Virus record (IMG/VR): IMGVR_UViG_3300012041_000055
Span: 1-28,450 of that record
Length of the DNA: 28,450 bases
Origin: a virus
Lineage: Duplodnaviria; Caudoviricetes
Direction: 5' to 3' (one strand)
Shown here: piece after piece, positions 751 to 28,446 of the stretch
Layout: the number at the start of each line of letters is the position of its first letter
Position numbering within the stretch: position 1 is the stretch's first letter
Program-made: the position numbers and the translations under genes
Notes under the pieces: generated by a model
Told to the model about the DNA's origin: nothing
Database searches by the model: none
Seen by the model: only the letters and a program-made list of their open reading frames with translations

Positions 751-1801
751 CGCTGACGACCTTGGCGCCGGCGATCTTGGCGATGATCTGGACTCCGGTT
801 CTGATGATAGTCAGGACGACGGCGATCAACAGAGCGACGACGGCGCACCGGATCATAGGGGGCGGCAGCAGCTTGACGATCTGAGTGTGAGTCGTACACC
901 GGATCGTCGACAGCAGCGACAGCAGTCTGAAACGCAGCCTCGACCATTCGCTCGTACTGCGGAAGTGCAGCCGGACGGCAACGGCAATCTGGTCGATCCG
1001 CAGACTGGTCAGGTTGTGGCTAGAGCGGGACGTGAAGCTGCACTATATCAACGCGGCTTCAAGAGCGGTGAGGGCGCGAAGGTAGGTGGTTTGACCTATC
1101 GTTTGCAACAGCGAGAGAATCAACTGCGTCAGGCTATGGACGCAGGGCGTCAACTGCATACAGAGGTTCAGCAGCTTCGCAGTCAAGGTGAAGCGTTAAA
1201 GCAGTTCAATTTGCAGCCGAATGATATGTTAGCGGCTGCAAAGCTGTTCAACGACCTAAAAACAAGGCCAGCGGAGGCCCTGCGCGCCCTATTGACAAGG
1301 GCAGCCGCAAGTGGTACAAATGTGGCAGAACTTGGAATTCAAGGCGTGAACGGTGCAGATGCCAAGTCACTGATCGATTTGGTCCGAGAGGAAATTCAGA
1401 AGGCCACACAGCCTATTTCTGAGCAGAACCAGAGAACCCAAGAAGTCGAACGGCAGCGTCAGCAGCAACAAGAACAAGAACGTAAGGCGCATGAAGAAGT
1501 AGAGTCGTTCTTCGCTGAAAATCAGGATGCGCAGAAATACATGCCCGTGTTCCAACGGGTACTTCAGAACCCCGATTTCAGGGGAATGTCGCTCGGTGAA
1601 ATCTGGGCACGTATTCAACTGAACCTACTGCGAAACGGAAGCCGTCAAGGTGGTTCTCAAAGAGGGAACGCTCGTGGTGCATCACGTCCGGTTGGTCGTG
1701 GACAGCCGCCGAGCGGAGACGATAGAAACCGTCCTGCTCCAGCAAATTCGACATACGACAATATCTTGAAGGACGTTCTGGACCAGCACGGCGTTGTGTG
1801 A
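677..1801 (+). CDS. Capsid scaffolding protein
   Basis: AGGAG at 662-666. Asp-rich disordered N-terminus, Gln/Glu-rich coiled coils, short C-terminal helix (YDNILKDVLDQHGVV); lies immediately before the capsid gene. Confidence 0.7.
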   Translation: MAPRDRQQDSSSDSRQMVFDNLGLDADDLGAGDLGDDLDSGSDDSQDDGDQQSDDGAPDHRGRQQLDDLSVSRTPDRRQQRQQSETQPRPFARTAEVQPDGNGNLVDPQTGQVVARAGREAALYQRGFKSGEGAKVGGLTYRLQQRENQLRQAMDAGRQLHTEVQQLRSQGEALKQFNLQPNDMLAAAKLFNDLKTRPAEALRALLTRAAASGTNVAELGIQGVNGADAKSLIDLVREEIQKATQPISEQNQRTQEVERQRQQQQEQERKAHEEVESFFAENQDAQKYMPVFQRVLQNPDFRGMSLGEIWARIQLNLLRNGSRQGGSQRGNARGASRPVGRGQPPSGDDRNRPAPANSTYDNILKDVLDQHGVV

Positions 1802-1855
1802 GTCATAATCTGATCAGCACCCTTTTCTAAGGGTGTAAACCTCTAGGAGAGATCA

Positions 1856-2833
1856 ATGGCTGCCCTCGATACCGTCATCCACTCCATGCTCACTCGCAGT
1901 CGTGCGAAGCTGATCATGGCGTCGGCGATTTCGGGCACCGTTTCCGCGTATCTCCACGCTAAGAAGCGCGTGGTGGTCGAAGACGGCGGCCCGAGCATTA
2001 CCAATCCGATCATCGTCGGGTTGAATCCAAACGTTACATCGATGCAGTACTACGATACAGTGCCCATCGATCAGACCAATGAGTTCACGACCATTAGCTA
2101 CAGCATGGCAAGAGTCGTGGGTTCCCTAATCATCTCAGATCAGGAAGAAGACGAGAACCAAGGTCGTGCTCAAATCTTTAAGATCATCAAAGGCAAGATC
2201 ATGGCGCTCGACGAGAGCATTTCTCGTCAGTTCGCGGCTTATCATACGGCGGTCGGTGCCGGGACCGATCCTAACGGGTTGGGCAATCTCATTCCGGCCG
2301 ATCCGACTACCGGCTCTGTGGGCGGTATCAGTCTTGCGGCGGAACCGCAGTGGCGGTCCTCGTCATATGACTTCGCCGGTACGCTGACGCCGGAGAACAT
2401 CGAGGAAGCGTTCGACGACATTCTCGAACTCGACCTGAACCGTGGCGATACGTCTGCGGACGATGCGGCTGAGTCCAAGCCGAGTGTCATCTTCGCTGGA
2501 CGTAATATCTACCGTATGCATAAGGCGGCGGCTCGCGATAAGCAGACCATCGCTCTCGATGCATCCGGCACCGGTAAGAAGCTGGTGAACCTCGGTATCG
2601 TTGGCACGACGCACAATGGTACACCGTTGCTTTTCGACGAGAAGCTCGGAGCCAATGTCGCGTACTTCGTCAACGACAAGTTCCTTACGCTCCACATCCT
2701 CCGTGGCGTCAACATGCGCATCAAGCAATTGGTCGCACCTTGGAGCATGGATGCATCCGGTCGTCGGATTGTGTGGGAAGGGCAACTCTGCTCTTGGCGT
2801 CAATACCGAACGCACGCCTACCTCACCAATTAG
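1856..2833 (+). CDS. Major capsid protein (HK97-fold expected)
   Basis: 325 aa with AGGAG RBS and strong C/G-ending codon bias. The segments GGPSITNPI, IISDQEEDENQG and NGLGNLI resemble podovirus-type capsid proteins; position after the scaffold. Confidence 0.85.
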   Translation: MAALDTVIHSMLTRSRAKLIMASAISGTVSAYLHAKKRVVVEDGGPSITNPIIVGLNPNVTSMQYYDTVPIDQTNEFTTISYSMARVVGSLIISDQEEDENQGRAQIFKIIKGKIMALDESISRQFAAYHTAVGAGTDPNGLGNLIPADPTTGSVGGISLAAEPQWRSSSYDFAGTLTPENIEEAFDDILELDLNRGDTSADDAAESKPSVIFAGRNIYRMHKAAARDKQTIALDASGTGKKLVNLGIVGTTHNGTPLLFDEKLGANVAYFVNDKFLTLHILRGVNMRIKQLVAPWSMDASGRRIVWEGQLCSWRQYRTHAYLTN

Positions 2834-2891
2834 GCACCCGCTTCCGCGGGTGTGAATGTGCGAGTCGCACACGAACCAGGAGTACAGCACC

Positions 2892-3314
2892 GTGTTTCAA
2901 GCAGCAATGAGCGGCACCAGACTGTCGTATGTCGTGCGGCAGCTTGATGGGCAAGTCGAGCGGGAAATCACTCCGTTCGACATGAAGAAGCGTGAGATCG
3001 TGCGCAAGATACAGAAGCAAGACGCTGGATACATCGTCTACTTCCCTCGTGGGCACGTTCTCCGTTTCAAGAATATGGAGGAATTGAAGCGGTACAAGCT
3101 TCACGTTCGTCCTCGGATGATCAACTTGCAGGGTTTGGAAGACCCAAACAGTCCACTCGGCAAGCTGATTTCCGCGCAAGACCAAAACGAACGCGACACT
3201 GCGTTCGAGGCACTTGAGAACCAAGTCATCGCCATGGCCACAGCCCGAACAGGGCGGGTGGTCATGCCGGAGCAGTTGATTTCACAACCGGCTGCTCCCG
3301 GCACGACGGTGTGA
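2892..3314 (+). CDS. Hypothetical protein (head module)
   Basis: ORF track gives 2856; in-frame GTG at 2892 preceded by AGGAG (2878-2882) is the more likely start. Confidence 0.65.
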   Translation: MFQAAMSGTRLSYVVRQLDGQVEREITPFDMKKREIVRKIQKQDAGYIVYFPRGHVLRFKNMEELKRYKLHVRPRMINLQGLEDPNSPLGKLISAQDQNERDTAFEALENQVIAMATARTGRVVMPEQLISQPAAPGTTV

Positions 3315-3343
3315 CTCACGCAACCTAAAGGAGGATCGGTCAG

Positions 3344-4054: not shown

Positions 4055-4063
4055 GTATGAGTC

Positions 4064-4753
4064 ATGTCAGCTACTGTTCGCCAAGTAGTAGACGATGCGC
4101 TGGAACTGGTCGGTGAAGTAGCCGGCCCAGGCGTCCAGATGTACGGGGACGACCGGATGCGCAGCAATGCCATCCGGGCGTTCGACATGCTTTTCAAGAA
4201 GTATCCGTGGCACCAATACCGCAAGTGGTTTCGCTTACAGCTTGACGGTGTACTTGGCGTGGTGTCCACGGACGCATTCGAACAGGTAAAGGACTTCGAG
4301 GACTTCATTAAGGTTTGTCGTGATGCGGAGTCCGAGTCTATACCGATGTGGCCGCGTGATGCCAATCCGTTTTCGTCTGCGATCACTAGCGGCGGTACGC
4401 AGCTTCGGTACTGGACAAGTCTGCATGTAGCAGACGCGAACTATGCAATGCGTAGGCTGCAATTCTATCCTGTGACCGCCACGGGTTTCGTGAACATTCA
4501 AGTGCTGTTGTATCCTCTCGTTCCTCCGGCATCGCAGTGGGATTGGGAAGATACATGGTATTTGGACCGTGCGTTGCTTACATATGCGACAGCGTTCATG
4601 ACACTTGTGGGCGATGACATGAATACCAATGCTGCCAATGTCGTTAAGGGAATGATGAATGACAAATTCAACGATATTAAGAATGCGTTGTCGCGTATCC
4701 CGAAAGCGATCGATCCGTCTTCTGGCGTTCCTACTGAATGGCAAGAAGTGTGA
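4064..4753 (+). CDS. Tail adaptor (tail tubular protein A-like)
   Basis: 229 aa; N-terminal 'TVRQVVDDALELVGE' helix and 'KKYPW' are typical of podovirus adaptors; precedes a ~600-aa nozzle gene. Confidence 0.65.
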   Translation: MSATVRQVVDDALELVGEVAGPGVQMYGDDRMRSNAIRAFDMLFKKYPWHQYRKWFRLQLDGVLGVVSTDAFEQVKDFEDFIKVCRDAESESIPMWPRDANPFSSAITSGGTQLRYWTSLHVADANYAMRRLQFYPVTATGFVNIQVLLYPLVPPASQWDWEDTWYLDRALLTYATAFMTLVGDDMNTNAANVVKGMMNDKFNDIKNALSRIPKAIDPSSGVPTEWQEV

Positions 4754-4786
4754 GTCATACAGCACCCGATCGAACCGAGTGTAAAC

Positions 4787-6610
4787 ATGGGTCGCGATCT
4801 ACTTTCGATTGAAATCAAAGCGAAGAAGCCAAGTAAGCTTCTGCCGCTTGTTATCCGTGGCTTCGGCGGTGGTTTGAACACGGTCGAAAACGATATTCTT
4901 ATGAGCCCTTCTGATCAAGTTGCCCTGAATAACATGCGGCGCACAGCGTCTGGCGGGCAGAAGGTTCGATATGGCTCGAACTGGTTTGAGGATGTGTCTG
5001 ATACTGTTACTGGTACGATTGTTGACATGGAGTATTTCGCGAACACCATCATCTCGGTTACAACGACGGGGCAGATATGCGCGACGGATAACGATGGCGT
5101 CAGTATCGTTATATGGAATAGTGCCATCGCGGCGCTTCTCCCAGGTGCTCCATCAGGTTGGTCCGCAGGAATTACTAATGTCGATTTCGTCCCGTTCAGG
5201 AATCAGCTTATCGTTCACAATGGAATAGACAAACCGATTACGATTAGTGCGAGTTTGGTTGTAACATACTTACAGGACTTGGGGAGTGGTAGTAATACCA
5301 ATACGCCCATCGGTAAATATGGATGTGTTGTATCAAACTATCATTGCATTGCAGGCATTAGTGGTTTGCCTAATACTATCTACATATCAGCAAAAGGAAC
5401 TGCTGGAACGTTCTTCGGTGATCCCGCTCCTAACGATTCGATTAGTATCGATGTTGGTGCGTATGCTCCAGAAGGTGCCGCCGAGATTAGAGGCATTGCT
5501 GGATTTCGTACCTTCTTGATTGTGTTCTTTCTCGCTCAATCACTTGTCGTTCAGCTTGGTATATATAATGATGCGACTACTCCTGAGCATGTTCCAGAAT
5601 TTCCTGACTCGATGCCAGATTTTGGAATACTTGGTCATCGTTGTATTAAACAGGTTGAGAACGATATGCTATTTGCTGGTCTTGACGGTCTGGCAAGTGC
5701 GACTCGTAATCTGTTCGGCAATCTGGATACGTTGGCACTTAGTGAAAAGATCGAGCCGTTTTATCGTGCTACAATTGCTGTTTTGACCGATACACAAATC
5801 AGGCTTAATTGTTTTTTGGTGTATGACTCACTAGCGCATGATCTGATCTTATCGATTCCGTCTGGTCCGTCGTTTGTGTATAGCTTTAATGACCGTTTAC
5901 GTTATCGAAGCTGGTCAACTTTTTCTGGTCAAGGAATGACTGCGGCATGTACATCATTCTTAGGTCGAGTGTTCTATTCAATTGGAACACGTATCTTTCA
6001 ATATGGAAACGGTGCATATCTTGGTGAAAACTATGCAGCAGATAGGCTTAATGATCGCGATGGTGATTGGGCTCCTGTCACTGCTTATGCTGTTGGGGAC
6101 ATTCTACGAGATGTTCCGAATGATTCAAGTTGGATTGCCATAGGTAATAATGTTAGCGGTTCAGTTTCGTTTGCCCAAGATCGTGCCGATCAAGTACTGG
6201 CCCCGAAGTGGACAGAATATGAAGGTGAGGCAATTGCGTTCGAGATGGAGTTGCCTTGGTTGGATAGTAAAGACCCAACACAAACTAAGATTTTGAGATT
6301 TGCTTCTGTCGGTTCAAAGGGAACTGGAGAGTTTATGCTCAAGATTTATGTAGACAACTTGTTTAAGGACGGCGATGGCGTTATACAGTACAATCCAGCG
6401 GTTACTGTCAATTTCATTGGTAATGATGCTCCCGGTTTCGGGTTCGATGCTGGTCCTTACGGCGGTGGCCGTAGAAGCGATGATCCGAGGCTCTGGAACG
6501 TACCAGTAAAGTTTAAGACCCTAAAATGTATCTATGCAGGATCGGTTCGTAAGCCGCTTGAATTGATTAGTCAAAAGTTTGTCTACGCTCGCGGAAGCCG
6601 CCAACGATGA
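4787..6610 (+). CDS. Tail nozzle (tail tubular protein B / P22 gp10-like beta-propeller)
   Basis: 607 aa, beta-rich; 'RGFGGGLN...NNM...GGQKVRYG' N-terminus characteristic of podovirus nozzle/head-closure proteins; position after the adaptor. Confidence 0.75.
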   Translation: MGRDLLSIEIKAKKPSKLLPLVIRGFGGGLNTVENDILMSPSDQVALNNMRRTASGGQKVRYGSNWFEDVSDTVTGTIVDMEYFANTIISVTTTGQICATDNDGVSIVIWNSAIAALLPGAPSGWSAGITNVDFVPFRNQLIVHNGIDKPITISASLVVTYLQDLGSGSNTNTPIGKYGCVVSNYHCIAGISGLPNTIYISAKGTAGTFFGDPAPNDSISIDVGAYAPEGAAEIRGIAGFRTFLIVFFLAQSLVVQLGIYNDATTPEHVPEFPDSMPDFGILGHRCIKQVENDMLFAGLDGLASATRNLFGNLDTLALSEKIEPFYRATIAVLTDTQIRLNCFLVYDSLAHDLILSIPSGPSFVYSFNDRLRYRSWSTFSGQGMTAACTSFLGRVFYSIGTRIFQYGNGAYLGENYAADRLNDRDGDWAPVTAYAVGDILRDVPNDSSWIAIGNNVSGSVSFAQDRADQVLAPKWTEYEGEAIAFEMELPWLDSKDPTQTKILRFASVGSKGTGEFMLKIYVDNLFKDGDGVIQYNPAVTVNFIGNDAPGFGFDAGPYGGGRRSDDPRLWNVPVKFKTLKCIYAGSVRKPLELISQKFVYARGSRQR

Positions 6611-6652
6611 TTGTGTGAGTCACACACTACTCGAACAGGTTGAGCACAAGCT

Positions 6653-7978
6653 ATGACACAGTTTTCTGCACACTTTCGCATTCCAATTCCTGACTTTGAG
6701 CAGGAGCCTTGGCACGATGAATTGGAAACAGCAATTCGTCAAGTCGATCAGGCTATCTATGAAGCACTGTTCGCGGCCGGTGCTGCTTTGTGGGAGAATG
6801 ATCATGACTACTTCACTGGCGATATTGCTCTTGATAACATCGATGGTCAGCTTTATGTGTGTGCTATTAATCACACTAGTCCATCCACACCTACCACGTT
6901 CACGTCGTTCCGAAATGCTAATCCGACATTTTGGAATGCCATTGTTACCATCCCTCAGTTCCGAGGTATTTGGGCTACTGCGACATCGTACATCAAGGGT
7001 GATTTTGTTATCGATAATCAGCGGTACGCTGTTGCTACTGTTTCTCATTTCTCAACTGTTTTCAATTCCGATCTTGGAGCGGGTAAGTGGGCCGTCCTGA
7101 TTGATTTAACCACCGTTCAAGCTGGATTTAATGAAAACGCGGAAGGCTCTATTGCTTCTGCGTCGACTACTGACATTGGAGCGGAAGCACCGTCACGCTT
7201 AGCCATTACTGGTACGGCTACGATCACTAGTTTCGGTGCTGTAGCGAACAAGTACAAGATGCTGCGGTATACGGACGCGGCGATTGTGACTCACAATGCT
7301 ACGACGTTGGCACTGATTGGTAGTGCAAACAGGACCATGCGAACGGGCGATGTTCAAATCTTGACATCGAACGCTTCTGGGCAGTGGCGTGAATTTGCAT
7401 TCTTTCGATCGGATGGCAATCCGGCGACTGAAACAGAACCTGGTGTAATCGAGCTTGCTACAACGGCGGAAGCGCAAGCAGGCGCTGATACTACTCGGGC
7501 TATTAGTCCAGCAAGGTTCAATGAAGCATTTGACAATCGCTTCTTTCCTTCTGGTACAAAAATGCCATTCCAACAGACTACCGCACCGATTCGTTGGACA
7601 AAGGATACAACGCATAACGATAAGGCACTGCGTGTTGTTTCCGGTTCCGTTGGCTCTGGCGGTACAGTTGCATTCTCAACAGTCTTTGCAAGGACCGCAA
7701 CGGATGTACACGCATTGACGATCAGTGAAATGCCAATACATAATCACAGTATCAGTGATCCTGGACATGTGCATGGTATATCACCTGATGCGGCAACTAC
7801 ATCAGGTCAGACCTTTACTGCTGGTGGCGTTGCTGGGGCTGCGGCGGCAGGTGCAACAGATACGGATAGTGCTGTGACAAATATCACAGTCGATAATTCT
7901 GGCGTTGGTGACTCGCACTCACATGCTATGGACATTCGTGTCCAATACGTCGATCTGATCATCGCAACGAAGGACTAG
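6653..7978 (+). CDS. Tail fibre protein 1
   Basis: Two W-x5-Y-x2-GD (CBM5/12-like) modules, a 'GVIELATTAEAQAG' fibre repeat and a collar/His-rich tip (MPIHNHSISDPGHVH...SHSH). Confidence 0.8.
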   Translation: MTQFSAHFRIPIPDFEQEPWHDELETAIRQVDQAIYEALFAAGAALWENDHDYFTGDIALDNIDGQLYVCAINHTSPSTPTTFTSFRNANPTFWNAIVTIPQFRGIWATATSYIKGDFVIDNQRYAVATVSHFSTVFNSDLGAGKWAVLIDLTTVQAGFNENAEGSIASASTTDIGAEAPSRLAITGTATITSFGAVANKYKMLRYTDAAIVTHNATTLALIGSANRTMRTGDVQILTSNASGQWREFAFFRSDGNPATETEPGVIELATTAEAQAGADTTRAISPARFNEAFDNRFFPSGTKMPFQQTTAPIRWTKDTTHNDKALRVVSGSVGSGGTVAFSTVFARTATDVHALTISEMPIHNHSISDPGHVHGISPDAATTSGQTFTAGGVAGAAAAGATDTDSAVTNITVDNSGVGDSHSHAMDIRVQYVDLIIATKD

Positions 7979-7981
7979 GCC

Positions 7982-8607: not shown

Positions 8608-8622
8608 CTGTGCGAGTCGTAC

Positions 8623-10137
8623 ATGCCGACGCCGGAAGAATTAGAAGTGATTAGGGCGTTTCGACAGCGCCAGTATCGCATGAGAATGATGCGATTGCGG
8701 CCGTCTGTGCCTGTTACAGAACAAAATCCTGCTCGTGAAGCGAATGGGATGTGGGGGTACCAGCGCACCGGTTCAATGAATGCAGGATCACCAATTTTGA
8801 CATTGACCTTTACATCAGATTTCCAAGTTGGCGATCCAGTCATTGTATCGACAGGTGGCGAGGAAGGGCTCGGCTTGTATGGTACTGTTGGCGTTGGCGG
8901 GAACCGTGGTATTGTCGGTTCGAACTATTACGAGTCGCAAATAAATCCACAGGCGTTGATCGCAACTGTGATCGATCGCAATGACGACGGTTCGGTGTTG
9001 ACATTGAGTCAATCAGCTGTGGTCAGCACGACCAATACCCTGATTGTATTCGACAACCGATCAATCGTTCAAGGATTTAATGAAGAAGTTCACGCTCCTG
9101 GTCATGAGATTGTCTATCCTGCTGGCAATTTTTATATGAGCAACACCTTTGGTATCATTGGTCAATCTGCGGGTTGGCTTATTCGTGGTGCAGGAAAGCA
9201 CGATACTGTATTTCGAGCACCTACGGGTGTCCAACTAAGCATGTTTGCATTTCAAGCTCATGGTGTAGAGATAAGGGACTTTAGCATCATAGGAAACCTT
9301 GCAGATGATAGTTTTGGTATGACAGGTACGGAATACAACTCCGGCATAGTTTTGATCCAGACGGCCAATGCCATTGTTCGTAATTTTCACGCCGAGGATG
9401 TGTTTGCAAAGGTAGTATGGGCAATAGGTGGTGGTGCCGATAATGTACTAGTCGAGGATTGCTCATGTCGTATGCGTGCGGCGCGTCGAGAATACTTAGC
9501 TGAATGGCTCTTTGGCGTAAGTGACAGCGTTGGCGGTACGTTCAATCGCTGTACTGTTGATAGCGATTACTTGATGCCTGGATTTGAAACCTTTCGTTCC
9601 AACGGCGTTATCTTCAATGACTGTAGCAGTAGAAATGGAATAGTTGCGTGCAATTCGAGTGGCAATTTTGAACTTAACGACTTCTCAATAATAGTGGAGG
9701 AATTGTCACAGCCCAATCAACCGTCTGATGTCCCACATCACCATTTGAGTCCGATCATAGACGTTAACCGAAACATCGTGCCTCCAGATCCTAGTATATC
9801 TGCGGGTGGTGTGATTAATAACATGCAGATTATCGTACAAGGACCAATCAATTCGAATGGAGAATTAAAGAAGGGGATCGTTATTAATGTGGACAACCCA
9901 AACATCACGGTCAATGGTGGACAGGTAGCGTATCCATCGACTCCTGGTCCGAGTGGTACAGATGTTGGTGCGCGTGGGTTTAGTTCGACAGGCCTGAATA
10001 CGATTGTTAATAACTTTACGGTCATTGGTCCATCGAGAGATGAATTCGAGAACAATATTGAAGTCGAGGATGGAGCGGTTAACAATTGTACTGCGACGCG
10101 TATCAGATGCGTTGGACCGAACTGTGTACTGACATAG
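8623..10137 (+). CDS. Right-handed beta-helix (pectin lyase-like) tailspike / depolymerase candidate
   Basis: 'IVYPAGNFY...LIRGAG...T', 'VEIRDFSIIGN' and 'NVLVEDC' beta-helix signatures; Asn/Gly/Ile-rich. Confidence 0.7.
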   Translation: MPTPEELEVIRAFRQRQYRMRMMRLRPSVPVTEQNPAREANGMWGYQRTGSMNAGSPILTLTFTSDFQVGDPVIVSTGGEEGLGLYGTVGVGGNRGIVGSNYYESQINPQALIATVIDRNDDGSVLTLSQSAVVSTTNTLIVFDNRSIVQGFNEEVHAPGHEIVYPAGNFYMSNTFGIIGQSAGWLIRGAGKHDTVFRAPTGVQLSMFAFQAHGVEIRDFSIIGNLADDSFGMTGTEYNSGIVLIQTANAIVRNFHAEDVFAKVVWAIGGGADNVLVEDCSCRMRAARREYLAEWLFGVSDSVGGTFNRCTVDSDYLMPGFETFRSNGVIFNDCSSRNGIVACNSSGNFELNDFSIIVEELSQPNQPSDVPHHHLSPIIDVNRNIVPPDPSISAGGVINNMQIIVQGPINSNGELKKGIVINVDNPNITVNGGQVAYPSTPGPSGTDVGARGFSSTGLNTIVNNFTVIGPSRDEFENNIEVEDGAVNNCTATRIRCVGPNCVLT

Positions 10138-10159
10138 GAAAGATTGTGAGTCATACACG

Positions 10160-11512: not shown

Positions 11513-11513
11513 G

Positions 11514-12393: not shown

Positions 12394-12412
12394 GGGTGTG
12401 TGAGTCACATAC

Positions 12413-15695: not shown

Positions 15696-15716
15696 TGTAC
15701 GACTCGCACAGCGGAG

Positions 15717-17006: not shown

Positions 17007-17036
17007 GCTGTATGACTCGCACACTCGGAGGCGGTT

Positions 17037-18041: not shown

Positions 18042-18073
18042 CGCTGTGTGACTCATACAAATAGGAGAAGACA

Positions 18074-18856: not shown

Positions 18857-18879
18857 ACTCATACATGAGAGTTATACAT

Positions 18880-19359
18880 ATGGCTGATCCCTTTGCTGAG
18901 ATGTTTGCCGCTGATCGGCAGCCGCGTACCGATCCATATACTGAGATGCTAAAACTATCCGAAGAAGACCCACGCATCAAGGCTATAATGGAAATGCGTG
19001 GAACTGATCAAATGCACAAAGGTGATCCGTCGCCTAGAGATATTCTCGCTGGGCGGATGATGAATATGTTGTTTAAGGGACTACACGATCCTGTTAGTAC
19101 GCCGGACCTTTCAGGTTTTACACCAAACTACGAGCCAGGAAAGCCTATTCCTAGTATACAACGTAGCACAGAACAGTTTAAGAGATACGTTGGAGATGCT
19201 CCGCGCGGTGATGAAGAACTTGACGCTGTTTGGGGAGGCGACGACAATGAGAATAATACCTATATACTCAAAACACCCAATAAAGATAATCCACCACAAA
19301 CAACAGAGGAAGAATTGGAACTAATCCAACGACTGATGGATCGTGATCTAGGATTGTGA
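18880..19359 (+). CDS. Acidic hypothetical protein (possible internal protein)
   Basis: ORF from ATG 18865 or in-frame ATG 18880 (GAGAG upstream); shares a QTTEEELE motif with the preceding gene. Confidence 0.6.
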   Translation: MADPFAEMFAADRQPRTDPYTEMLKLSEEDPRIKAIMEMRGTDQMHKGDPSPRDILAGRMMNMLFKGLHDPVSTPDLSGFTPNYEPGKPIPSIQRSTEQFKRYVGDAPRGDEELDAVWGGDDNENNTYILKTPNKDNPPQTTEEELELIQRLMDRDLGL

Positions 19360-19368
19360 GTCATACAC

Positions 19369-22300
19369 ATGACTGATGCCTATTCGTCGATGTTTGGTCT
19401 AGCTGACTTCGAATTTCCAGAAACCGAAGAACAGCAAAAGCTGCGCAGAGAAAAGGCGCTGGCCGAAGCCATTCAAATAGAAGAAGCCCAAACCGGAGAG
19501 CGGTCAACGCTTCGCGATCAGGCTATGTTCGCTACAGGTGGCGTCCGTCATACAGCGAGTGGCTTTCTTGGTGGTATAGCTGGTGCGCCGTGGGATATCG
19601 GCGCACTGATCACGGAAGGATCGGCAGCACTGCCATCGTCACCATCGTTTGGCGGAGCCTTGTTGAAGGCTCCGGCAGCGGCTTTAGGCGCTGCTGGTAT
19701 CGAACCACAAGCCGCAGCCAATTGGATGCGTCAACAGGGTAAAGGCGCGCGTTCGTTCTTTGATGAAATCACAGGAACAGAACTTCCTCCACAAACTTCT
19801 GTGGAAAAAGGCGGTCGCCTTCTTGGTGAATCTGCTCAACCAGCAGGAAAGTTAACCATTCCACTCACCGCCGCAGTAGCTGGTGCTAAGTACTTTTCAC
19901 AACCTAACCAACCAGCGATGGATGAGCCATCGCTAATGACCGGTCGGCCGCTGCCGCCGCCGGAACGAACCTTCTCTTGGCTTGATTCTGTTTCACCGAT
20001 TTCAACCGCACTAGCTGCGCCGCAGCCGAGTGTGAGTCATACACCAAAAGAGATTACAGTCGAAGCCCAAGGTGGACCGGTAAGCTTCAACTGGAAAGAT
20101 TATGCAACGATGGGCGGTCTAGTTGCAGCAACCGCAGGAATGATCTTTGCGCCTAAGTTGATTGGTACATTTACACGCGGCGCGGTTCCGCGTCTCCGTC
20201 CGGTCGTTGATGCTGCTCCTGGTACATCGACGATCAGTACCGTTGGTGATTACATGCGAACGCAGGATGACGTTAATGCTGGTCTGGTTCGAATAGCTGA
20301 ACGTGCTGGTTCTCCCGTTCCAGTCGTAGATGCACTAAAGGACCGCCTCCGCTTTCAGACTAGGGGCGAAGCAAATGCCCTTGGTGAGTCCGCCATTATT
20401 GGTGGTCGCGCCGAAACTCCTACGTTTACATTTCAAACTGCTGTACCGATGGCCGATCTGATTGCTGCTAATGTTCCGAACGCTTCACGGTATATGAACC
20501 TTCGCAATATATTTGATGAGATTGGTATGATCGATGCCCGGATTGCAGCCGGTCGTATAAAGAACCCGCCTCCTGGACCTACAACGGTTCAGGGGATGGC
20601 CATGCCTGATGTGCTACAGGAAATGCACGCACTCGAACAAGCCACTCCGCAATTGCGGCAGCTTGCCCAAGGCTACACACAAAACCTGCGTGACTTACGA
20701 AAGTTTGAAGAAGTTGGTGAGTATGGAACACTCAGTAAAAAAGAACGCGCTTGGGAAAATTCGAACCGTCCTAATGATACGGCATTTACAGGTATGCGCG
20801 CACTTGATGAAGCTCCGGTAGATGACATACTGCAAAACTCAGCGGTAACCATTGCCAGTAGGATCAAGTTTCGTATTGAGAACGAATCAAAAGGTATGTA
20901 TATTGACGAACTCAGAAAAGTAAGACCGGAACTGGCCGTAGGGCCTGTTTCCAAAGAATGGCTCGATAAGCATCCGAGAGCAGAAACTAGAGTCGTTACA
21001 TTCTATCGTCGTGGTGTATTGGAGCGATATACTGTCGATCCGTACATTGCTGATGTAATGAAACTCGATCCATACTATATGACAGGTGCGGCTCAACAGG
21101 TTTTGTATGGAAGCAAACGCCTTTTGGAAATGGGTGCTACTGGCGCTTTAGCCCCATGGTTTATATCGACAAGCTTTATACGAAGTGTTTGGATCAATCG
21201 ACATACCGCAGCCAGTGCTTTTCCTGGAGCCAAAAGTGTAGGATTTACTCGATCGCTCTATGCTGTTCCACAACAGCTTGTTCCACAATTGGCCAAGGCC
21301 GTTAGCAGTTCATTGGATCGTGGTAGTGCTGGTTGGCTACTGCGGACGCTCAATGTAAGTGCAGGAAATATCCAAGCATTAAGTACACGCTTGGCTCACA
21401 CCTATCATAATAGTCTATTTCATCAATTGCAATCTGTTGGTAGTACGCATGGAAACGTACTGACACAGCAAGCAATTGCACGTAATCAATTCAATAGAGC
21501 AATTCAGACCACAACTGGTCCACTCAAATCCTTACTAAGTATGTACATGCGGATGGTTGAAGCTGGTCATAATGCACCATCATTTGCATTTGCTAGTAAA
21601 AATTATGGTAAAGTATCGCTCCCCAAATTAGCAGGAGCGTCACGACACCTAACGGGTAGCCCTCGTGTCGGTGGACAATACTACAGTGGTGGCGGGCTGT
21701 TTACCGGCGGCACAAAACCAATTCGGTTTGAAGATACACGAACCGACTGGCGCGGTCGTGTGAGTCGTACAGTACACCGTACTATTGCTCAGCCATATGG
21801 ATACGCAACAGAATTGGGTCGGTCGACTGTTCCGTGGTTCAACGTTACTACGCAAGGCGTCAAACGTATCGGTGAAGCATACATTAAAAATCCAGCAGGG
21901 TTCATTGGGCGCACTTGGCTCTATACAATGCTGCCTGCGGCTGCTGGTTATATGTATACGGCAGGATTGGGTAAAGACCCAAATGGTCTTAGCTATATTG
22001 ATTATATGTTCAATCGACGTAACGATTACAAAAAGACAATGAATTTCTACATTCCTATTCCCGGCCGTCCTGCCGAAGAAGGAATCGAGTTTCCACGCTT
22101 TCACGAACTGGCTCCGGCCGCTCGTATGATGGAAACCGCTCTACATCATATGACACATTCCAGTCTATTCTCGCAAACTGAGGACTTTATGCGCGTGGCG
22201 CAAAGCTTTTTCAATATTGCGATCTCTCCACCCCTACCGCCTATATTCGGTGTAAGTGCTGCCACTATGGGATATACAGCGCCGCAGGGTGTGTTTGGTG

Positions 22301-23319
22301 GCGAGATGTACAAACGCCGCTCCGAGCCCTTCGATCAATCCGGCGGACTACCCATTAATATTGAGCTTCTCATTCGTGCTCTTGGCGGGGGGATCGGTGA
22401 CGTTGTAGGTGCCGGAGCGGCGGCATTCACACAAACGCCAGAAGGTATAGACAAGGCATTCAAAAACGCTCTTGCAGAAATGGGAACGCGGGCTGTTTCC
22501 AAAACACCAATTCTCAGGGACGTACTCGGTATCCACGCGCCTTCGATTGGCAATACAGATGTTGTCAGTAAAATGTTTGAAAAGAATCGAGCAATTAAAC
22601 AACTGAGCGGATACTACAATAAATGGACTGTAAAAGATGGTGCATTGTATGGCGGTGATCCAGGAAAGAAAAGGGATGTGATAACTGAATCTGGTGAACG
22701 AGTCGCACAGGAGAAACTCGGTCCACGTCCACCGAGAGGCAATCCAGGTATGGGACAAAAAGACCCAACCAATCCGCTTTACATACAGTTTGCCAAGGAA
22801 GTGCATGAGAAGTTCATGCGTGATGCAACGTTATCAGCAGGTGGCCAGAAGCATTGGCAAAATCTAGAAAACCAAAAGGCAAAGTTTGCAAACGATCCAA
22901 TCAAACTGTCTGAAATTAAAGCAAAGCAAGAAAAAATAGAACAGGAGGAAAATGTCGGAGGCATCGGTTTCAAATCACTGTTTGAACGCTATAACATTGC
23001 GACTCGTGCAATCCAGCGTATCAACAAAGTGAATGCTGGCAATTTCGTAACTTGGCAGGACTATCTTTTGAATGAAGGAGAAGTGACGCAGTATCTACAC
23101 GAGAACAAAGTGAATATACAAGACCCCGTTTCCGTCAAGAATTTCTATGAGCGTCAACGTCAGGACGCCGCCCGTGTAATTCTGCATACAATCAAAGCCG
23201 TTGAAAATGACTTCTCAAAAAGAATAGGCCAGCCGATCAAAATTGAAGACTTGAAACCATACGGCCCAGGCACTATAGAATTGCCAGAAGTAGAGGTTAC
23301 TGATACTGGACTGTACTAA
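19369..23319 (+). CDS. Large internal virion / ejectosome protein (positional analogue of T7 gp16)
   Basis: 1316 aa, helical with Gly/Ala-rich hydrophobic segments; last gene of the virion arm. Confidence 0.65.
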   Translation: MTDAYSSMFGLADFEFPETEEQQKLRREKALAEAIQIEEAQTGERSTLRDQAMFATGGVRHTASGFLGGIAGAPWDIGALITEGSAALPSSPSFGGALLKAPAAALGAAGIEPQAAANWMRQQGKGARSFFDEITGTELPPQTSVEKGGRLLGESAQPAGKLTIPLTAAVAGAKYFSQPNQPAMDEPSLMTGRPLPPPERTFSWLDSVSPISTALAAPQPSVSHTPKEITVEAQGGPVSFNWKDYATMGGLVAATAGMIFAPKLIGTFTRGAVPRLRPVVDAAPGTSTISTVGDYMRTQDDVNAGLVRIAERAGSPVPVVDALKDRLRFQTRGEANALGESAIIGGRAETPTFTFQTAVPMADLIAANVPNASRYMNLRNIFDEIGMIDARIAAGRIKNPPPGPTTVQGMAMPDVLQEMHALEQATPQLRQLAQGYTQNLRDLRKFEEVGEYGTLSKKERAWENSNRPNDTAFTGMRALDEAPVDDILQNSAVTIASRIKFRIENESKGMYIDELRKVRPELAVGPVSKEWLDKHPRAETRVVTFYRRGVLERYTVDPYIADVMKLDPYYMTGAAQQVLYGSKRLLEMGATGALAPWFISTSFIRSVWINRHTAASAFPGAKSVGFTRSLYAVPQQLVPQLAKAVSSSLDRGSAGWLLRTLNVSAGNIQALSTRLAHTYHNSLFHQLQSVGSTHGNVLTQQAIARNQFNRAIQTTTGPLKSLLSMYMRMVEAGHNAPSFAFASKNYGKVSLPKLAGASRHLTGSPRVGGQYYSGGGLFTGGTKPIRFEDTRTDWRGRVSRTVHRTIAQPYGYATELGRSTVPWFNVTTQGVKRIGEAYIKNPAGFIGRTWLYTMLPAAAGYMYTAGLGKDPNGLSYIDYMFNRRNDYKKTMNFYIPIPGRPAEEGIEFPRFHELAPAARMMETALHHMTHSSLFSQTEDFMRVAQSFFNIAISPPLPPIFGVSAATMGYTAPQGVFGGEMYKRRSEPFDQSGGLPINIELLIRALGGGIGDVVGAGAAAFTQTPEGIDKAFKNALAEMGTRAVSKTPILRDVLGIHAPSIGNTDVVSKMFEKNRAIKQLSGYYNKWTVKDGALYGGDPGKKRDVITESGERVAQEKLGPRPPRGNPGMGQKDPTNPLYIQFAKEVHEKFMRDATLSAGGQKHWQNLENQKAKFANDPIKLSEIKAKQEKIEQEENVGGIGFKSLFERYNIATRAIQRINKVNAGNFVTWQDYLLNEGEVTQYLHENKVNIQDPVSVKNFYERQRQDAARVILHTIKAVENDFSKRIGQPIKIEDLKPYGPGTIELPEVEVTDTGLY

Positions 23320-23402
23320 GAGAACGCATACGTCAAAATAACGGCTCCAATTATCGTTAGGATAACACCCAGTATTGCCTCATCCAGTTCGTATGTAAAC
23401 AT
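23316..23402 (-). CDS. 28-aa single-pass membrane peptide (MFTYELDEAILGVILTIIGAVILTYAFS), below the ORF-track cutoff
   Basis: AGGAG 8 nt upstream of the ATG; one long hydrophobic stretch; exactly fills the gap between the two arms. Confidence 0.6.
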   Translation of the reverse strand: MFTYELDEAILGVILTIIGAVILTYAFS

Positions 23403-23406
23403 CACT

Positions 23407-23703
23407 CTATCTCCTGTGGTCCGCTGGCCATCCGTTGCAGTGCGCTATTTCGTGACGCAGTACCGCCTCTTTATCATATAGAGAATCGGTGCTGATAATC
23501 ACAACGCATCGATTGCCCATACTGTAGCTGCAGCCAGCAACGCTACCTGTACGAGATATTACGTATGCATTGCACATACGATTAGCCTCATCCCCAGAAA
23601 CGCGTTTGATTAATAACTCACCTGAAAACGGATGATCATAGATTGCTGGCGGTGCTATTGGCGCGCATCCTATTAGTAGCAGTATTGGTACGAACTTTAT
23701 CAT
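23407..23703 (-). CDS. Small predicted lipoprotein with HExxH motif
   Basis: MIKFVPILLLIG-C lipobox-like signal; LRHEIAHCNGW zincin-type motif; four further Cys. Confidence 0.65.
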   Translation of the reverse strand: MIKFVPILLLIGCAPIAPPAIYDHPFSGELLIKRVSGDEANRMCNAYVISRTGSVAGCSYSMGNRCVVIISTDSLYDKEAVLRHEIAHCNGWPADHRR

Positions 23704-23951
23704 ATCTCTCTTATCCTATCAGTTGCTCGCCAGATGGTTGTGTTAGTACCCTGATTAGAAGTACCAAGGTTGGACTTGATGAACTTATCGACCTTGCGCT
23801 GCGACTGTAGATATTCGAGATATGCTACGCAGTCAGCCGCTTTCGTCTTTACAACCACTCGGCCAGTGATCTTCTGTTGCTGGACGCCCTTCGGTCCCGC
23901 CTTAATCAGCATCTGAATTACTACCTCTTGCCAGTCTCCGTATTGCCACAC
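23700..23951 (-). CDS. Small basic hypothetical protein, possibly winged-helix
   Basis: 83 aa; AAGGA upstream of GTG; helix-helix-helix-strand-strand pattern by eye; ATGA overlap with the next gene. Confidence 0.55.
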   Translation of the reverse strand: MWQYGDWQEVVIQMLIKAGPKGVQQQKITGRVVVKTKAADCVAYLEYLQSQRKVDKFIKSNLGTSNQGTNTTIWRATDRIREI

Positions 23952-24144
23952 GGTCGTAGTCCTTCATAACGAATCCCAAACCCATACAATGACAGCATCT
24001 TATTGATATGGATGTACTATATTGTAATGTATTATGTTGTACATAATTAGTAGATTCCACATAAAGAGATTTCTTTCCTTTGCAACAAGGACACTCGATT
24101 CGAAATTCTTCTGGATATCGAATGTCAAGTTCTGTATGACTCAC
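23902..24144 (-). CDS. Small Zn-finger protein (DnaJ-type CxxCxGxG-like)
   Basis: CPCCKGKK and CCHCMGLG motifs; likely GTG start overlapping the polymerase stop (GTGA). Confidence 0.55.
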   Translation of the reverse strand: MSHTELDIRYPEEFRIECPCCKGKKSLYVESTNYVQHNTLQYSTSISIRCCHCMGLGFVMKDYDRVAIRRLARGSNSDAD

Positions 24145-26705
24145 AATTCCATCTTTACCATGTGCGCCCATCTATGCAGTCCTTTCTTTTGATCTAGTAC
24201 AAACGTTCCAGGAGTCTTCACCTTCTTGCCACTCCAATCCACTGTAGCTTTCTCGTTCCAGATTGTGGGAACCGAAATTTTCAATTCCGCCGGAATACTC
24301 AACGGTTCCGCCGGCCTTCTTTTCCACACATCTTGTATCCATATCGGTTCCTCCGCATACTTCTTTAGAATTGCACCCACTGTCTTAGCGACGCGAGGCG
24401 TGGAAATCGCGACAAGATTGTCATGCACATCAATAGCGACCCTAGCCCTGCCCGTCGGCCAGTCGTCATCTTCCATGGATTGATACCAAGACCTTGTAAC
24501 TTTGTCACCAATAGTCGATTGCGGGTAAAACGCAATAATGGACTCCAATACTGAGTCGTCGAGTTGCTGAACGACTTTAAGCCTACGGCCATAGGCGTTC
24601 GATATGGATTTCGTCGCACGGAATTCTCTTTCTTCTTGCGTCCACCAACGCTTAATCTCTGGAGTAATTTGGTGGTAGATAATGAATGATCGTTGGGCTT
24701 GGAAATATGGAAGACCTGTGACCTCCGCAAGCTTTTCCATTTGCATACGATAGTTAAGTCCATGCCTGCACCTTTTCGCTATATATCTGATCGTCGGCTT
24801 GTCGTCTTCGTCCCAATCCGACTTCGGAACTTGATCGTAGGGCACCTTAAACATTTCGCTGGCCAAGGCTCTGTGTGAGTCGTACATGCCGTCAATTTTC
24901 GCTTGAGCGTATTGATCCTTCCATGTCTGAATATCTGCACGAAAAGAAACAACTTGTGCTTCTGCTTGGGATAGATCAAAATATACAAGGACACAACCGT
25001 CATCCGCGACGTATTGGACACGAGCACGAACTGGTTGATTTTGCATATTCCCACCGTCACCGTCGAGCAACTTAGTACTCGATAGACGGCCTGGAGCCTT
25101 TGCAACCCCATATTGTTTGTAGTCGCAGCGAAATCTGCCATCAGATGACACTCTGGATTTCGCATACGTCGAAAAGAACTTGTGTTCCTCTTTGAATTTG
25201 TTGAGCGCAACGATCATCTCCTTTGCCAGCGGAGGCGTAGTCGGTTCTTTGAGGATAATATTTCTATTTTCCTCATTGGTCGAGCGCCCCCGACCCCTAA
25301 GCTTGAGTATGTCGAAGAAGAACACCTGTAGCTGTTGCCAGGAAGACGGCAACGGATAGTATTCTTCGTCGCCGGTAATTTCATGAACAATCCTATAGAA
25401 CTCATTCTCAAAAGTCTTAACATCCTGCTCACACTCTTTAATGACGCGTTGCTTAACCACTTCATCTGATTTAACTCCATGGATTGTAGCTTCGACTAAA
25501 TGTGGCTGAGCACGCATCACATGACCAAAGAAAAACTTATCCATCCCGGAGGTTTTCAGTTCCCTTGTCAATCGCTCGTGGACGGCGTAGGTGAGAGCGG
25601 CATCTTTACAATTATACTTCCAGTACGTATCAATATCTCCACCCTCCTTCCAGATTTTAGCATCATCCTTGTAAAAAGGATGCGTGGTATAGCATGATAC
25701 AAGGAAAGCCAAACTGTGAGGCAGTCGTGGCAACAGGGTATGATGCGCGAGTAGAGTATCGAACCAGAGTCGAATCTTGAGCCTTTCACGCATCCCGGTC
25801 CAGTAAGAGTCAAAGCCACCATTCTGCGCGATAATGTTGTGTGAGTCACACAGAGCTTGCAACGCATACAAAATGTCCGCTTCTTGAGACACTGTAAAGC
25901 GATTTTGGACAGTATCTCTAAGGCTAATGCACATAGCTTTGTGTGGATCGTTACTGAGTCCGTAGCAAGCCGTGTATCCATTAATGCCTTCGATGTCAAA
26001 CGAAACTGGCTTTGTAGATTTCTGTAGATCACGAATGAACGCGAGTACTTCCTTGTACGTCGGGTTAATAATCTCCTCGATGTAGTGCATCCTGTAGACA
26101 TTGCGGATCACCATGTCCAACTTATGCAGATCGGCCATGAAGATTGGCTCGAACCGTGGATCGCGTCCATGCATTGCATATGCTGGATTGATCGTACAGA
26201 CGATCCAACCCTCTTTACCATTGGGTAGTACACTCTCAATGACAGAACCTCGCCAGTTCAGAATGCCTGCCTCTCCGGTCATGGCCTCTAATGCCATGGA
26301 GCCAAGACATACTATGATCTTGGCTTTTGGTAACTGCTCCAACTCCCATTGCAGTAGTGCCGTCCACTGATCTAACTCGTCTTGGTGGACTTCGTGTCGC
26401 TCGTTGGTCCTTCGACTAAGACTAATTTGTCGTTTGACCACGTTAGTACAATACGCGTTGTGTCTTCCAATATGAAACTTTCCAGTGACTCGCCATAGCA
26501 TCTGACCAGCGCCCCCGACAAACGGTCGTCTACTTCTATCGCGAACCTCTGATTCCCCCGGCCCTTCACCAACAAAAACCACTTCGGCGTCGATTGGACC
26601 ATCACTAAATACCTCCGTTTTGAGTCCGATCAGATCAGCTTGGTCACGAAACTCTTGCTCTAGAGTTTCTCTTGTGTGCGGTTTGTTTCTTGTCCTTCTT
26701 GACAT
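24141..26705 (-). CDS. polA: Family A DNA polymerase with N-terminal uracil-DNA glycosylase (family 4)-like domain and 3'-5' exonuclease
   Basis: UDG-like: VFVGEGPG..E, PFVGGAG, TNVVK, IVCLG..A, RGS. Exo: FDIE, QNGGFD, YNCKD. Pol: GRLSS..NMQNQP, motif A DLSQAE, motif B RxxAKxxxHGxNY, motif C VHD. Confidence 0.93.
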   Translation of the reverse strand: MSRRTRNKPHTRETLEQEFRDQADLIGLKTEVFSDGPIDAEVVFVGEGPGESEVRDRSRRPFVGGAGQMLWRVTGKFHIGRHNAYCTNVVKRQISLSRRTNERHEVHQDELDQWTALLQWELEQLPKAKIIVCLGSMALEAMTGEAGILNWRGSVIESVLPNGKEGWIVCTINPAYAMHGRDPRFEPIFMADLHKLDMVIRNVYRMHYIEEIINPTYKEVLAFIRDLQKSTKPVSFDIEGINGYTACYGLSNDPHKAMCISLRDTVQNRFTVSQEADILYALQALCDSHNIIAQNGGFDSYWTGMRERLKIRLWFDTLLAHHTLLPRLPHSLAFLVSCYTTHPFYKDDAKIWKEGGDIDTYWKYNCKDAALTYAVHERLTRELKTSGMDKFFFGHVMRAQPHLVEATIHGVKSDEVVKQRVIKECEQDVKTFENEFYRIVHEITGDEEYYPLPSSWQQLQVFFFDILKLRGRGRSTNEENRNIILKEPTTPPLAKEMIVALNKFKEEHKFFSTYAKSRVSSDGRFRCDYKQYGVAKAPGRLSSTKLLDGDGGNMQNQPVRARVQYVADDGCVLVYFDLSQAEAQVVSFRADIQTWKDQYAQAKIDGMYDSHRALASEMFKVPYDQVPKSDWDEDDKPTIRYIAKRCRHGLNYRMQMEKLAEVTGLPYFQAQRSFIIYHQITPEIKRWWTQEEREFRATKSISNAYGRRLKVVQQLDDSVLESIIAFYPQSTIGDKVTRSWYQSMEDDDWPTGRARVAIDVHDNLVAISTPRVAKTVGAILKKYAEEPIWIQDVWKRRPAEPLSIPAELKISVPTIWNEKATVDWSGKKVKTPGTFVLDQKKGLHRWAHMVKMEL

Positions 26706-26838
26706 TTAGCATCGCCCCTTTCCTAGATATGATGTAGTGTTGTCCGCTCGAAAGATTCCAACCTGTTCTGCGAAGTGGGTTGGCAACATACGGAGACTGC
26801 CACTGTTCTTCCATAATCTCTTTGAGTGTACGACTCAC
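26644..26838 (-). CDS. Possible 64-aa basic hypothetical protein
   Basis: Fills the gap between helicase and polymerase but overlaps the polymerase start by 62 nt and lacks a clear RBS. Confidence 0.3.
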   Translation of the reverse strand: MSRTLKEIMEEQWQSPYVANPLRRTGWNLSSGQHYIISRKGAMLNVKKDKKQTAHKRNSRARVS

Positions 26839-26863
26839 GTTATGTACCGATGTGCTGTGCGAC

Positions 26864-28111
26864 TCATACTTCTGCCCTTCGTAGTGCCAGATACATTGCT
26901 CGTCTGTCAGCGATTATGATCACATGACCCTTCGCCCTCGTTATGGCGGTGTAGAAATTTCTACGGTTAAGAAGAAATGCCTGCCCCCTCGAAATGCAAT
27001 AAATAACAGTCTCGAACTCAGAACCTTGCGCTTTGTGAGTCGTAATCGCATAGCCCAACTCCAATTGTTTCCTTGGGTCATATTGGATATGTGTTCCATG
27101 GTAGTAGCTGAACATCTTTACTCTTGGAGGCACGATCACATGACGATCACCCAGCAACAGACCACACGATCCTTCGTCTTCATCTACCCAATCCACCGTA
27201 CCAATCTCTCCGTTGAATAGGTCTAAATTGTAATCGTTCTTGATCCAAATGAACTTGTCCTTTGGCTTGACTATTAGTTTAGCTTCCTTCTCGTCATATC
27301 GATCCACACGAAGACCGCCCTTATACTTATTAAACTTCAATTGCAGCGTTGGATTGGTCTTACTTGTTCCGTAATTACCACGCCTTGTCGGCATGATAAT
27401 CTGTCGATTGTCTTTCGCAAACTCACCAGTTGCAAACTCTGCCAACGTCTTCATTGGCCAATCGCTATACAATACCTCGAACCGATCATTCCTGATCGGA
27501 ATTGACCCACGTAGTATTCGCATCGCATTGGATACAATATGATCCTCGCTCCTGAAATTATGATGTAGTTCTATCATCGGTCGCTCTTTCAAAATCTTAA
27601 TGAAAGGCGGCTCGCCGTCCTCAACTGGTGGCAACTGATTGTTGTCACCAAAGAACCTGATCACTCCACCATTCGGCAACGCGTCGATCAATTGTCTATA
27701 CAATGTAGGTGCGACCATAGACGCCTCGTCTACGATCACAACCATTTCATCGAGTCGATTGAACCTGTTCCGCTTCGGTTCAGTCGGATCAACCACACCG
27801 AAATCGTCCTCATCTGGACGGGGAAACTCCAGCAGTCTATGTATCGTCTTGGCTGGTATCCCCGTCAGTTCCTGAATGCGCTTTGCTGCACGACCGGTCG
27901 GAGCGGCCAGGACAACCTTGCGTCCCCGTCTGGCGAGTGTCTCATACACCTTGCCGAGGACCAACGTTTTTCCTGTACCTGCTCCGCCGGTTACACTTGC
28001 GATCAAAGTCGATAGATCGCAACACAGCATGACAGCGTTCTCCTGTTCCACACTGAGAACCGTCTCATGTTCCGGCCTTGGAGCCGGTTTGTTCACCTTA
28101 GCTTTGACCAC
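26864..28111 (-). CDS. RecD/Dda-like superfamily 1B helicase
   Basis: GGAGTGKT (Walker A), APTGRAAK, TIHRLL, DEASMV, GDNNQLPPV, YAITTHKAQGSE, YTAITRAK; GGAGG RBS before GTG. Confidence 0.95.
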   Translation of the reverse strand: MVKAKVNKPAPRPEHETVLSVEQENAVMLCCDLSTLIASVTGGAGTGKTLVLGKVYETLARRGRKVVLAAPTGRAAKRIQELTGIPAKTIHRLLEFPRPDEDDFGVVDPTEPKRNRFNRLDEMVVIVDEASMVAPTLYRQLIDALPNGGVIRFFGDNNQLPPVEDGEPPFIKILKERPMIELHHNFRSEDHIVSNAMRILRGSIPIRNDRFEVLYSDWPMKTLAEFATGEFAKDNRQIIMPTRRGNYGTSKTNPTLQLKFNKYKGGLRVDRYDEKEAKLIVKPKDKFIWIKNDYNLDLFNGEIGTVDWVDEDEGSCGLLLGDRHVIVPPRVKMFSYYHGTHIQYDPRKQLELGYAITTHKAQGSEFETVIYCISRGQAFLLNRRNFYTAITRAKGHVIIIADRRAMYLALRRAEV

Positions 28112-28112
28112 G

Positions 28113-28388
28113 TTATACCTCCGACAGTTTGACGCGTTTTCCTGGTACAGTCATTGGGCTAACCTTTGGCTTCGGAACCTCCGGTTCTTCTGCTTCTGCT
28201 AGTATCTGCTCGGCAGCTTGTATGAGTACCATCCTGGTAAAGTCAGCTTGGGCCAGTCCGAGATGCCGAGCAGCCAAATCGATCTTACGCTTATCGCCGA
28301 TGTACATACGAGTCAGCACCGCAGTACTCCCTGGGCGCCGAAATGAATACAAGTCCACGACGATCCGTTGCGGTAGCGCCACTTTCAT
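28113..28388 (-). CDS. Ribbon-helix-helix-like DNA-binding protein
   Basis: ATG at 28388 with AGGAG (28391-28395), close spacing. 'TAVLTRM..GDKRKIDLAARHLGLAQADFTRMVLIQAAEQIL' fits the strand-helix-G-helix pattern of Arc/CopG/DUF1778-type RHH proteins. Confidence 0.6.
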   Translation of the reverse strand: MKVALPQRIVVDLYSFRRPGSTAVLTRMYIGDKRKIDLAARHLGLAQADFTRMVLIQAAEQILAEAEEPEVPKPKVSPMTVPGKRVKLSEV

Positions 28389-28406
28389 TTCTCCTGTGGT
28401 TGTGGC

Positions 28407-28446
28407 GGTGTATGACTCACACTTACCTTTGTATGAGTCATACACC
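28407..28446. promoter_or_regulatory. Tandem pair of palindromic sites (operator-like) upstream of the RHH-like gene
   Basis: GTATGACTCACAC (28410-28422) and GTATGAGTCATAC (28431-28443), centres 21 bp apart; together they also form the inverted repeat GGTGTATGACTCA...TGAGTCATACACC. Confidence 0.65.

Follow-up and report, generated by a model that had tools for sequence, protein, structure and literature searches.

The contig of a tailed virus (Duplodnaviria; Caudoviricetes) recorded in IMG/VR as IMGVR_UViG_3300012041_000055 is strewn with copies of a 13-bp palindrome, GTRYGASTCRYAC, and the array formed by these copies is real, selected and family-wide. The stretch under analysis, hereafter the window, is the entire 28,450-bp contig, part of a tailed phage whose complete relatives measure 43-48 kb. 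Arrays of this kind are already known; what is newly added here is that the spacing of the sites fills gaps, and that the sites are re-spelled in place among relatives. The explanation that we prefer, with a probability of roughly 0.4, is that a phage-made dimeric protein occupies the palindromes as evenly spaced roadblocks and thereby silences or times transcription. Beyond the array itself, every step of that explanation is one that we infer.

The exact pattern occurs 17 times between positions 885 and 28443, the number given by the original prediction, against a mean of 0.03 and a maximum of 1 in 100 dinucleotide shuffles. Allowing up to one mismatch raises the count to 25 (0.48 expected), and a further 17 matches carry two mismatches, eight of them with the YGASTCR core intact; the near copies, put at about 15 by the original prediction, thus number 16 (eight with one mismatch and eight with two and an intact core). 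A 15-bp weight matrix trained on the sites themselves recovers 31 in the window, compared to 0.3 in Markov nulls. The reported extension to TGT-N9-ACA is also borne out, with both flanks present in 10 of the 17 perfect copies (the T in 12, the A in 15), and sites lie, as described, on both the plus-strand and the minus-strand gene arms.

All 13 close genomes carry the array, with 33-51 matrix sites in the 12 relatives of the window and null means of at most 0.6. Genes being called by our own heuristic, 15 of the window's 31 matrix sites fall between genes or no further than 25 nt from the end of one, where 6.8% would be expected, a bias absent from the original prediction; in the 12 relatives the share at junctions is 47-86%, against an expected 10-15%. 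The commonest placement is one in which the motif's own TGA serves as the stop codon (65 cases). Sites are also selected inside genes, since those of the window stand about tenfold above synonymous shuffles (16 sites against 1.1), a codon-preserving comparison that had been proposed as a check, and the relatives hold 5-23 intragenic sites against 0.5-2.3 in the shuffles. One perfect site inside the polymerase gene (25839..25851; pattern scan and alignment) falls in one and the same column of the alignment for 13 of 15 genomes, and several genomes with the GTTTGA motif encode LFDSH there in place of LCDSH; the encoded residue goes with the motif, DNA driving protein. Other intragenic sites recur in the same region in differing codons and frames among lineages, and it seems that the approximate position of a site matters more than its exact position.

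Spacing, for which a test of regularity had likewise been suggested, is more even than random. In this and in the arm-pairing, position and distance analyses G005, a near-duplicate of G004, was omitted, and G010 was not included. With junction sites held fixed and intragenic sites randomised, the pooled gap statistic was 18,070 against 22,948 randomised and none of 2000 pooled randomisations was as even; the genomes are kin, so such pooled p-values overstate independence, which tells against the preferred explanation. Taken singly, 10 of 12 genomes had smaller gaps than randomised at p<0.05. The median distance from an intragenic site to its nearest neighbour is 756 bp, compared with 369 bp after randomisation: intragenic sites avoid other sites, filling long gaps. 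The spacing follows no strict period, the largest gaps reach 2.1-4.2 kb, and the early arm is the denser in sites in 13 of 13 genomes.

The same spacing fits the main rival to the roadblocks, a structural lattice in which the genome would be compacted, protected, packaged or pulled in after the manner of matS/MatP. The binding sites of matS/MatP, SlmA and Noc are dispersed palindromes of 12-14 bp, many of them intragenic; they are bacterial, belong to one chromosome domain and occur at much lower density, and no sequence homolog of their binders was seen here. The binder of a phage lattice might be a small-terminase-like protein bearing a helix-turn-helix (HTH), the 313-aa protein considered below or g152, the product of a plus-strand gene (2892..3314, start approximate) lying 3' of the capsid gene. 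A lattice is a serious contender, albeit a doubtful one. Even, gap-filling spacing, the lack of site orientation and of an integrase, and the recurrence of intragenic sites nearby at different codons would all suit it; gaps of several kilobases without a fixed period and the denser early arm would not. With a median pI of 9.5, g152 is a basic protein; it leads the 26 core proteins in the correlation of its distance with motif distance (rho 0.91, partial 0.62) and comes first of four proteins over 32 loci (partial 0.45), and the junction upstream of it, 3' of the major capsid gene and holding a perfect site at 2858..2870, has a site in all 14 genomes compared (pattern scan and genome comparison). 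Against this, its tree takes 9 motif changes, no fewer than the 8-9 of its neighbours, its signal does not come chiefly from the variable hairpin of the protein, and a homolog is present in L219, where 16 kb contain no array. Family searches with g152 gave matches no better than E 0.002, and these were scattered. Having the top distance correlation and trees no better than those of neighbouring genes, g152 is kept as a minor candidate and an improbable reader of the sites.

That the palindromes might instead act in RNA, as hairpins for processing or termination, or as recombination joints for gene swapping, is suggested by the junction bias and by the site after the 313-aa gene, which is sometimes part of a longer hairpin. 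Either role is very improbable. The stem would be only 5 bp long with a loop of 3 nt; 265 of 2415 arm pairs are true mismatches, incapable of pairing, which means that no hairpin is being conserved, and G-U pairs (97) show no clear preference over A-C (73; p 0.08). Neither the window nor locus L092 has an Rfam match, and selection inside essential genes, such as that for the polymerase, fits neither role. In the window itself, perfect palindromes account for 6 of the 31 matrix sites, and 15 are fully pairable when G-U wobble is allowed, in agreement with the earlier observation that the halves often cannot pair. The mismatches likewise favour, as had been argued, recognition of duplex DNA over an RNA hairpin, and it is with considerable confidence that we take a protein to read the sites in that form.

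Related phages, to which the original prediction had pointed as a further check, carry the motif and co-vary in its spelling. The window and G001 share GTRYGASTCRYAC; GTGTGASTCACAC is found in G002, G003 and G006, GTTTGASTCAAAC in G004, G005, G008, G009 and G011, and a relaxed motif in G007, G012 and G013. More distant members retain the 13-bp frame with changed arms, as CTTTAA-S-TTAAAG in L153 and G020 (28 copies in the latter) as GATTAA-S-TTAATC in L157 and as TTGTG-NNN-CACAA in G021 (34 copies); across classes the arms are thus spelled GTGTGA, GTTTGA, CTTTAA, GATTAA and TTGTG. When mapped on protein trees of 32 loci (out of 54 eligible, after dereplication), motif class requires 8-9 changes against about 16.5 when shuffled, and on these trees it follows the phage tree. 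The sites of G020 (L211-L213) are nearly invariant and one-sided, with C at the centre and AA as the 5' flank in most of the 28 when read on the sense strand; this lean is confined to G020, the close clade being unlike it.

Were the reader a host transcription factor or nucleoid protein, the motif would differ because hosts differ. This is unlikely, even though, among the core phage proteins with classical DNA-binding folds, none matches the motif classes, and even though L153 and G020 share a motif without being sisters in the RecD tree, where long branches make their placement unsure. Motif class following the phage tree speaks against a host protein, as does drift in small steps between close relatives (one position is G in 87% of sites in L088, and A, G or T in 36, 23 and 40% in L090). 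CcrM/GcrA sites (GANTC) were considered and rejected: the core is AASTT in L153, L157 and G020 and is relaxed in G021, and loss of GANTC from the CTTTAA and GATTAA lineages excludes CcrM/GcrA as the common thread. The reader is probably encoded by the phage.

The phage protein initially taken for that reader was a ribbon-helix-helix (RHH) protein of 91 aa, TacA/NikA-like, encoded on the minus strand at 28113..28388. Two perfect sites 21 bp apart (28410..28443) lie upstream of its gene in the window, through which it would regulate itself. Its fold, a beta-strand and two helices, is confirmed by a Pfam NikA-like match (E 1.3e-6), a model with pLDDT 90 and an alignment to TacA1 (Z 6.3, rmsd 1.6 over 51 residues), and it is a core protein encoded by each of the 13 close genomes; 226 clusters were counted at 50% identity. 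We nevertheless dropped it, on the evidence of G020, L157, L088/L090 and the distances. G020, a genome of 48.5 kb rated 100% by CheckV, keeps its 28 sites without a homolog (best E 1.1, filters off); L157 has no RHH gene at the usual slot; L153 has one and yet shares its motif with G020; and L088 and L090 differ in site preference with RHH cores that are nearly identical. Of the 26 core proteins, RHH is one of the poorest at predicting motif distance from its own distance (rho 0.33, partial -0.10), and the tandem pair is not preserved in relatives. That RHH reads the sites now seems highly improbable. A second palindrome, approximately TGTTGCA-N3/4-TGCAACA, was seen by eye over the promoter of the 313-aa gene at about 14760-14800 of L092 (G001) and in G002, G006, G013 and L090, and was not seen by eye in G020, which lacks RHH; it could be RHH's own putative operator. 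A further candidate, a core protein of 83 aa with a winged-helix-like fold assigned by eye (23700..23951, minus strand), matches the motif classes poorly, and its putative recognition helix is acidic and varies within one motif class; it too was rejected.

Among the proteins that G020 shares, the one whose gene has the most regulator-like layout is the 313-aa product of the first conserved early gene. This gene lies beyond the window end (13751-14692 in G001) and is present in 15 of 15 other whole genomes, including the RHH-less G020. Of 19 loci, 9 have a site near the start of the gene and 11 have one no more than 50 nt past the stop, where a hairpin is often present; two of these loci begin inside the gene, and several of the stretches examined end before the start codon. 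In G001 a site was found by eye between a sigma70-like promoter and the start. The distance of the 313-aa protein tracks motif distance among the 26 core proteins (rho 0.79, partial 0.34), and its structure model has a pLDDT of 87. We propose it tentatively as the reader, conceding that the odds are somewhat against it.

Roadblocks set by a phage-made dimer would then work as follows. The protein, perhaps the first conserved early gene product, would bind the palindromes and coat the genome with evenly spaced obstacles that silence or time transcription; an early promoter can be followed closely by a site, the early arm would be the more densely covered, and with gap-filling spacing few long transcripts would escape a site. 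An effect on transcription is somewhat favoured over one on packaging. Several observations weigh against this scheme. The sites have no orientation relative to transcription (the centre base on the sense strand is G in 282 and C in 221) and lie mostly away from promoters. Neither tyrosine integrase (PF00589) nor serine recombinase (PF07508) was detected in any of 14 genomes, leaving no evident lysogenic state on which silencing would act, and HTH_3 (PF01381) matches only two of the 14 and is not core. No regular site stands beside the start of the 313-aa gene in the stretches examined of G003, G011, G020 and G023. The 313-aa protein is equalled or surpassed by g152, SSB and the nuclease in how closely it tracks the motif; it has no family support, and its model found no match at E<=0.001 in PDB or BFVD. 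As a homolog of the phiC31 repressor c it was rejected (hhalign probability 0.27%, hmmsearch E 1), and an Atlas suggestion of that homology, at 0.80, proved to be at chance level.

Several known systems resemble the array. The repressor c of phage phiC31 binds conserved inverted repeats. We counted 15 perfect copies of a 14-bp palindrome in the 41-kb phiC31 genome, spread throughout and often intergenic as here; phiC31 differs in being temperate with an integrase, in its sparser and invariant sites, and in that our 313-aa candidate, the sole protein compared, is not a detectable homolog of c. Another parallel is offered by the Cluster O mycobacteriophages: as reported in the passages used here, a dyad repeat of 17 bp occurs 34 times in their genomes, with binder and function unknown and no integrase (PMC4351075). 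Like the present sites, these number more than 30, are dyad-symmetric, intergenic and intragenic without clear orientation, and have their intergenic copies concentrated in one arm (PMC4351075). Cluster O differs in its 17-bp repeat of invariant arms in a 7-3-7 arrangement, where the present motif has 13 bp, a conserved centre and degenerate arms; it belongs to an unrelated phage family, and the density here is about twofold. Its five genomes are near-identical and without re-spelling, and the passages used test no spacing (PMC4351075).

Stoperators, described in the portions used of reports on Cluster A mycobacteriophages and Streptomyces phage R4, comprise 20-30 asymmetric, oriented sites whose motif drifts with the repressor (PMC6550527, PMC10276819). 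They share with the present array (31-51 sites) a genome-wide distribution mostly off promoters and drift among relatives; according to the same portions they are asymmetric and oriented with transcription, and their phages are temperate with an HTH repressor, whereas the present sites are unoriented palindromes, and searches of 14 genomes revealed neither an integrase nor a core HTH_3. In the KorB/OB system of plasmid RK2, as far as the source was used, a palindrome likewise of 13 bp and centred on one base acts in long-range silencing; its sequence differs (PMC11790492). A Pfam scan of 47 proteins (28 from the window and 19 from G001) gave no ParB/KorB-like match; it did not include a genome-wide ParB search. 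By comparison at this level the array would appear to work like the Cluster O, stoperator, phiC31 and KorB systems and is by sequence a member of none. The original prediction's premise that ordinary phage operators are few and clustered at promoters consequently does not stand, given Cluster A stoperators, Cluster O dyad repeats and phiC31 repeats, nor does its view of the kind of system as undescribed, at least on the parts of the Cluster A (PMC6550527) and Cluster O (PMC4351075) reports used and the 15 phiC31 copies. The motif itself was not described for any phage in the literature searched, subscription papers and supplements being outside its reach; the eight papers listed as containing the exact 13-mers concern plants, mice or people.

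The remaining sites of the window, all from the pattern scan, are distributed as follows. Perfect copies lie inside a scaffold-like gene (885..897), the 1077-aa gene (14734..14746), the 1316-aa gene (20030..20042 and 21758..21770), the UDG-PolA gene (24873..24885) and a further gene (11090..11102), over a TGA stop (4748..4760) and over the stop of the RecD-like helicase (26857..26869), and between genes at 6613..6625, 8610..8622, 15697..15709, 17010..17022 and 18046..18058. Sites with one mismatch cover the TGA stop of the scaffold-like gene (1796..1808), the stop of g152 (3309..3321), another TGA stop (19354..19366) and the polymerase stop together with the start of the following gene (24134..24146); others are intergenic (10144..10156 and 12398..12410), intragenic (22696..22708) or at the midpoint of a 607-aa gene, 910 nt from its start and 901 from its end (5697..5709). 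Two mismatches are found inside a tail-fibre-like gene (7284..7296) and within genes at 7906..7918, 8928..8940 and 22997..23009, with a weak intragenic match, also scored by the matrix, at 11406..11418. Three more fall below the matrix cut-off: at a gene junction (4055..4067), within a gene (5821..5833) and at a gene start (26828..26840). A match with two mismatches at 27033..27045 falls in a conserved helicase stretch, ITTHKA, and may be imposed by the protein.

The plus strand of the window encodes capsid and tail-fibre-like genes, and the minus strand the RecD-like helicase and the polymerase (24141-26705), a family A enzyme with an N-terminal uracil-DNA-glycosylase (UDG) domain that is core throughout the family. 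No primase or replicative helicase family matched among the scanned proteins of the window and G001. The C-terminal half of the 1077-aa gene product (window 13900-15600) carries repeated QPLRSWT-like units of about 30 residues, which have no Pfam or PHROG match. In G001, the minus-strand divergent region at 16940-17110 of L092 holds two sigma70-like promoters, one of them TTGACA-17-TATACT, and a terminator-like hairpin with a T run within about 60 nt; possibly it encodes a small RNA, and it has no Rfam match. Named phages are distant by capsid protein (23-27% identity among 30 of 42 matches listed), and uncultured relatives comprise 214 viral loci and 951 capsid protein clusters. No prophage was found in GTDB genomes by capsid protein. 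A 26-kb contig from a metagenome-assembled genome, with a capsid of 55% identity, has genes that are all phage-like; the 16 kb examined contain no array, and a 313-aa homolog was not found in this incomplete genome. A capsid homolog of 86% identity, P0178, lies on a contig of 141,629 bp, three times the family genome size, which is possibly a prophage or an assembly artefact and might name a host. Tandem repeat arrays were noticed in unrelated viral loci, namely L177 13600-14650 (period about 66 bp), L179 8730-8950 (about 64) and L184 330-2150 (42-66).

Since Cluster O was described in 2015, there has been no explanation for palindrome arrays that span the genomes of phages lacking an integrase. 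The present family supplies what Cluster O lacked, namely hundreds of relatives and at least five re-spelled motif classes, together with a natural case in which one candidate reader has been lost and evidence for selection on the spacing itself. It is conceivable, if rather unlikely, that these phages, which would not integrate, construct a sequence-specific nucleoid of their own, in which a protein of new fold, the first produced upon infection, would bind a lattice of sites held by selection about 1 kb apart even where amino acids change as a result; site and reader would then drift together, each lineage recognising its own DNA.

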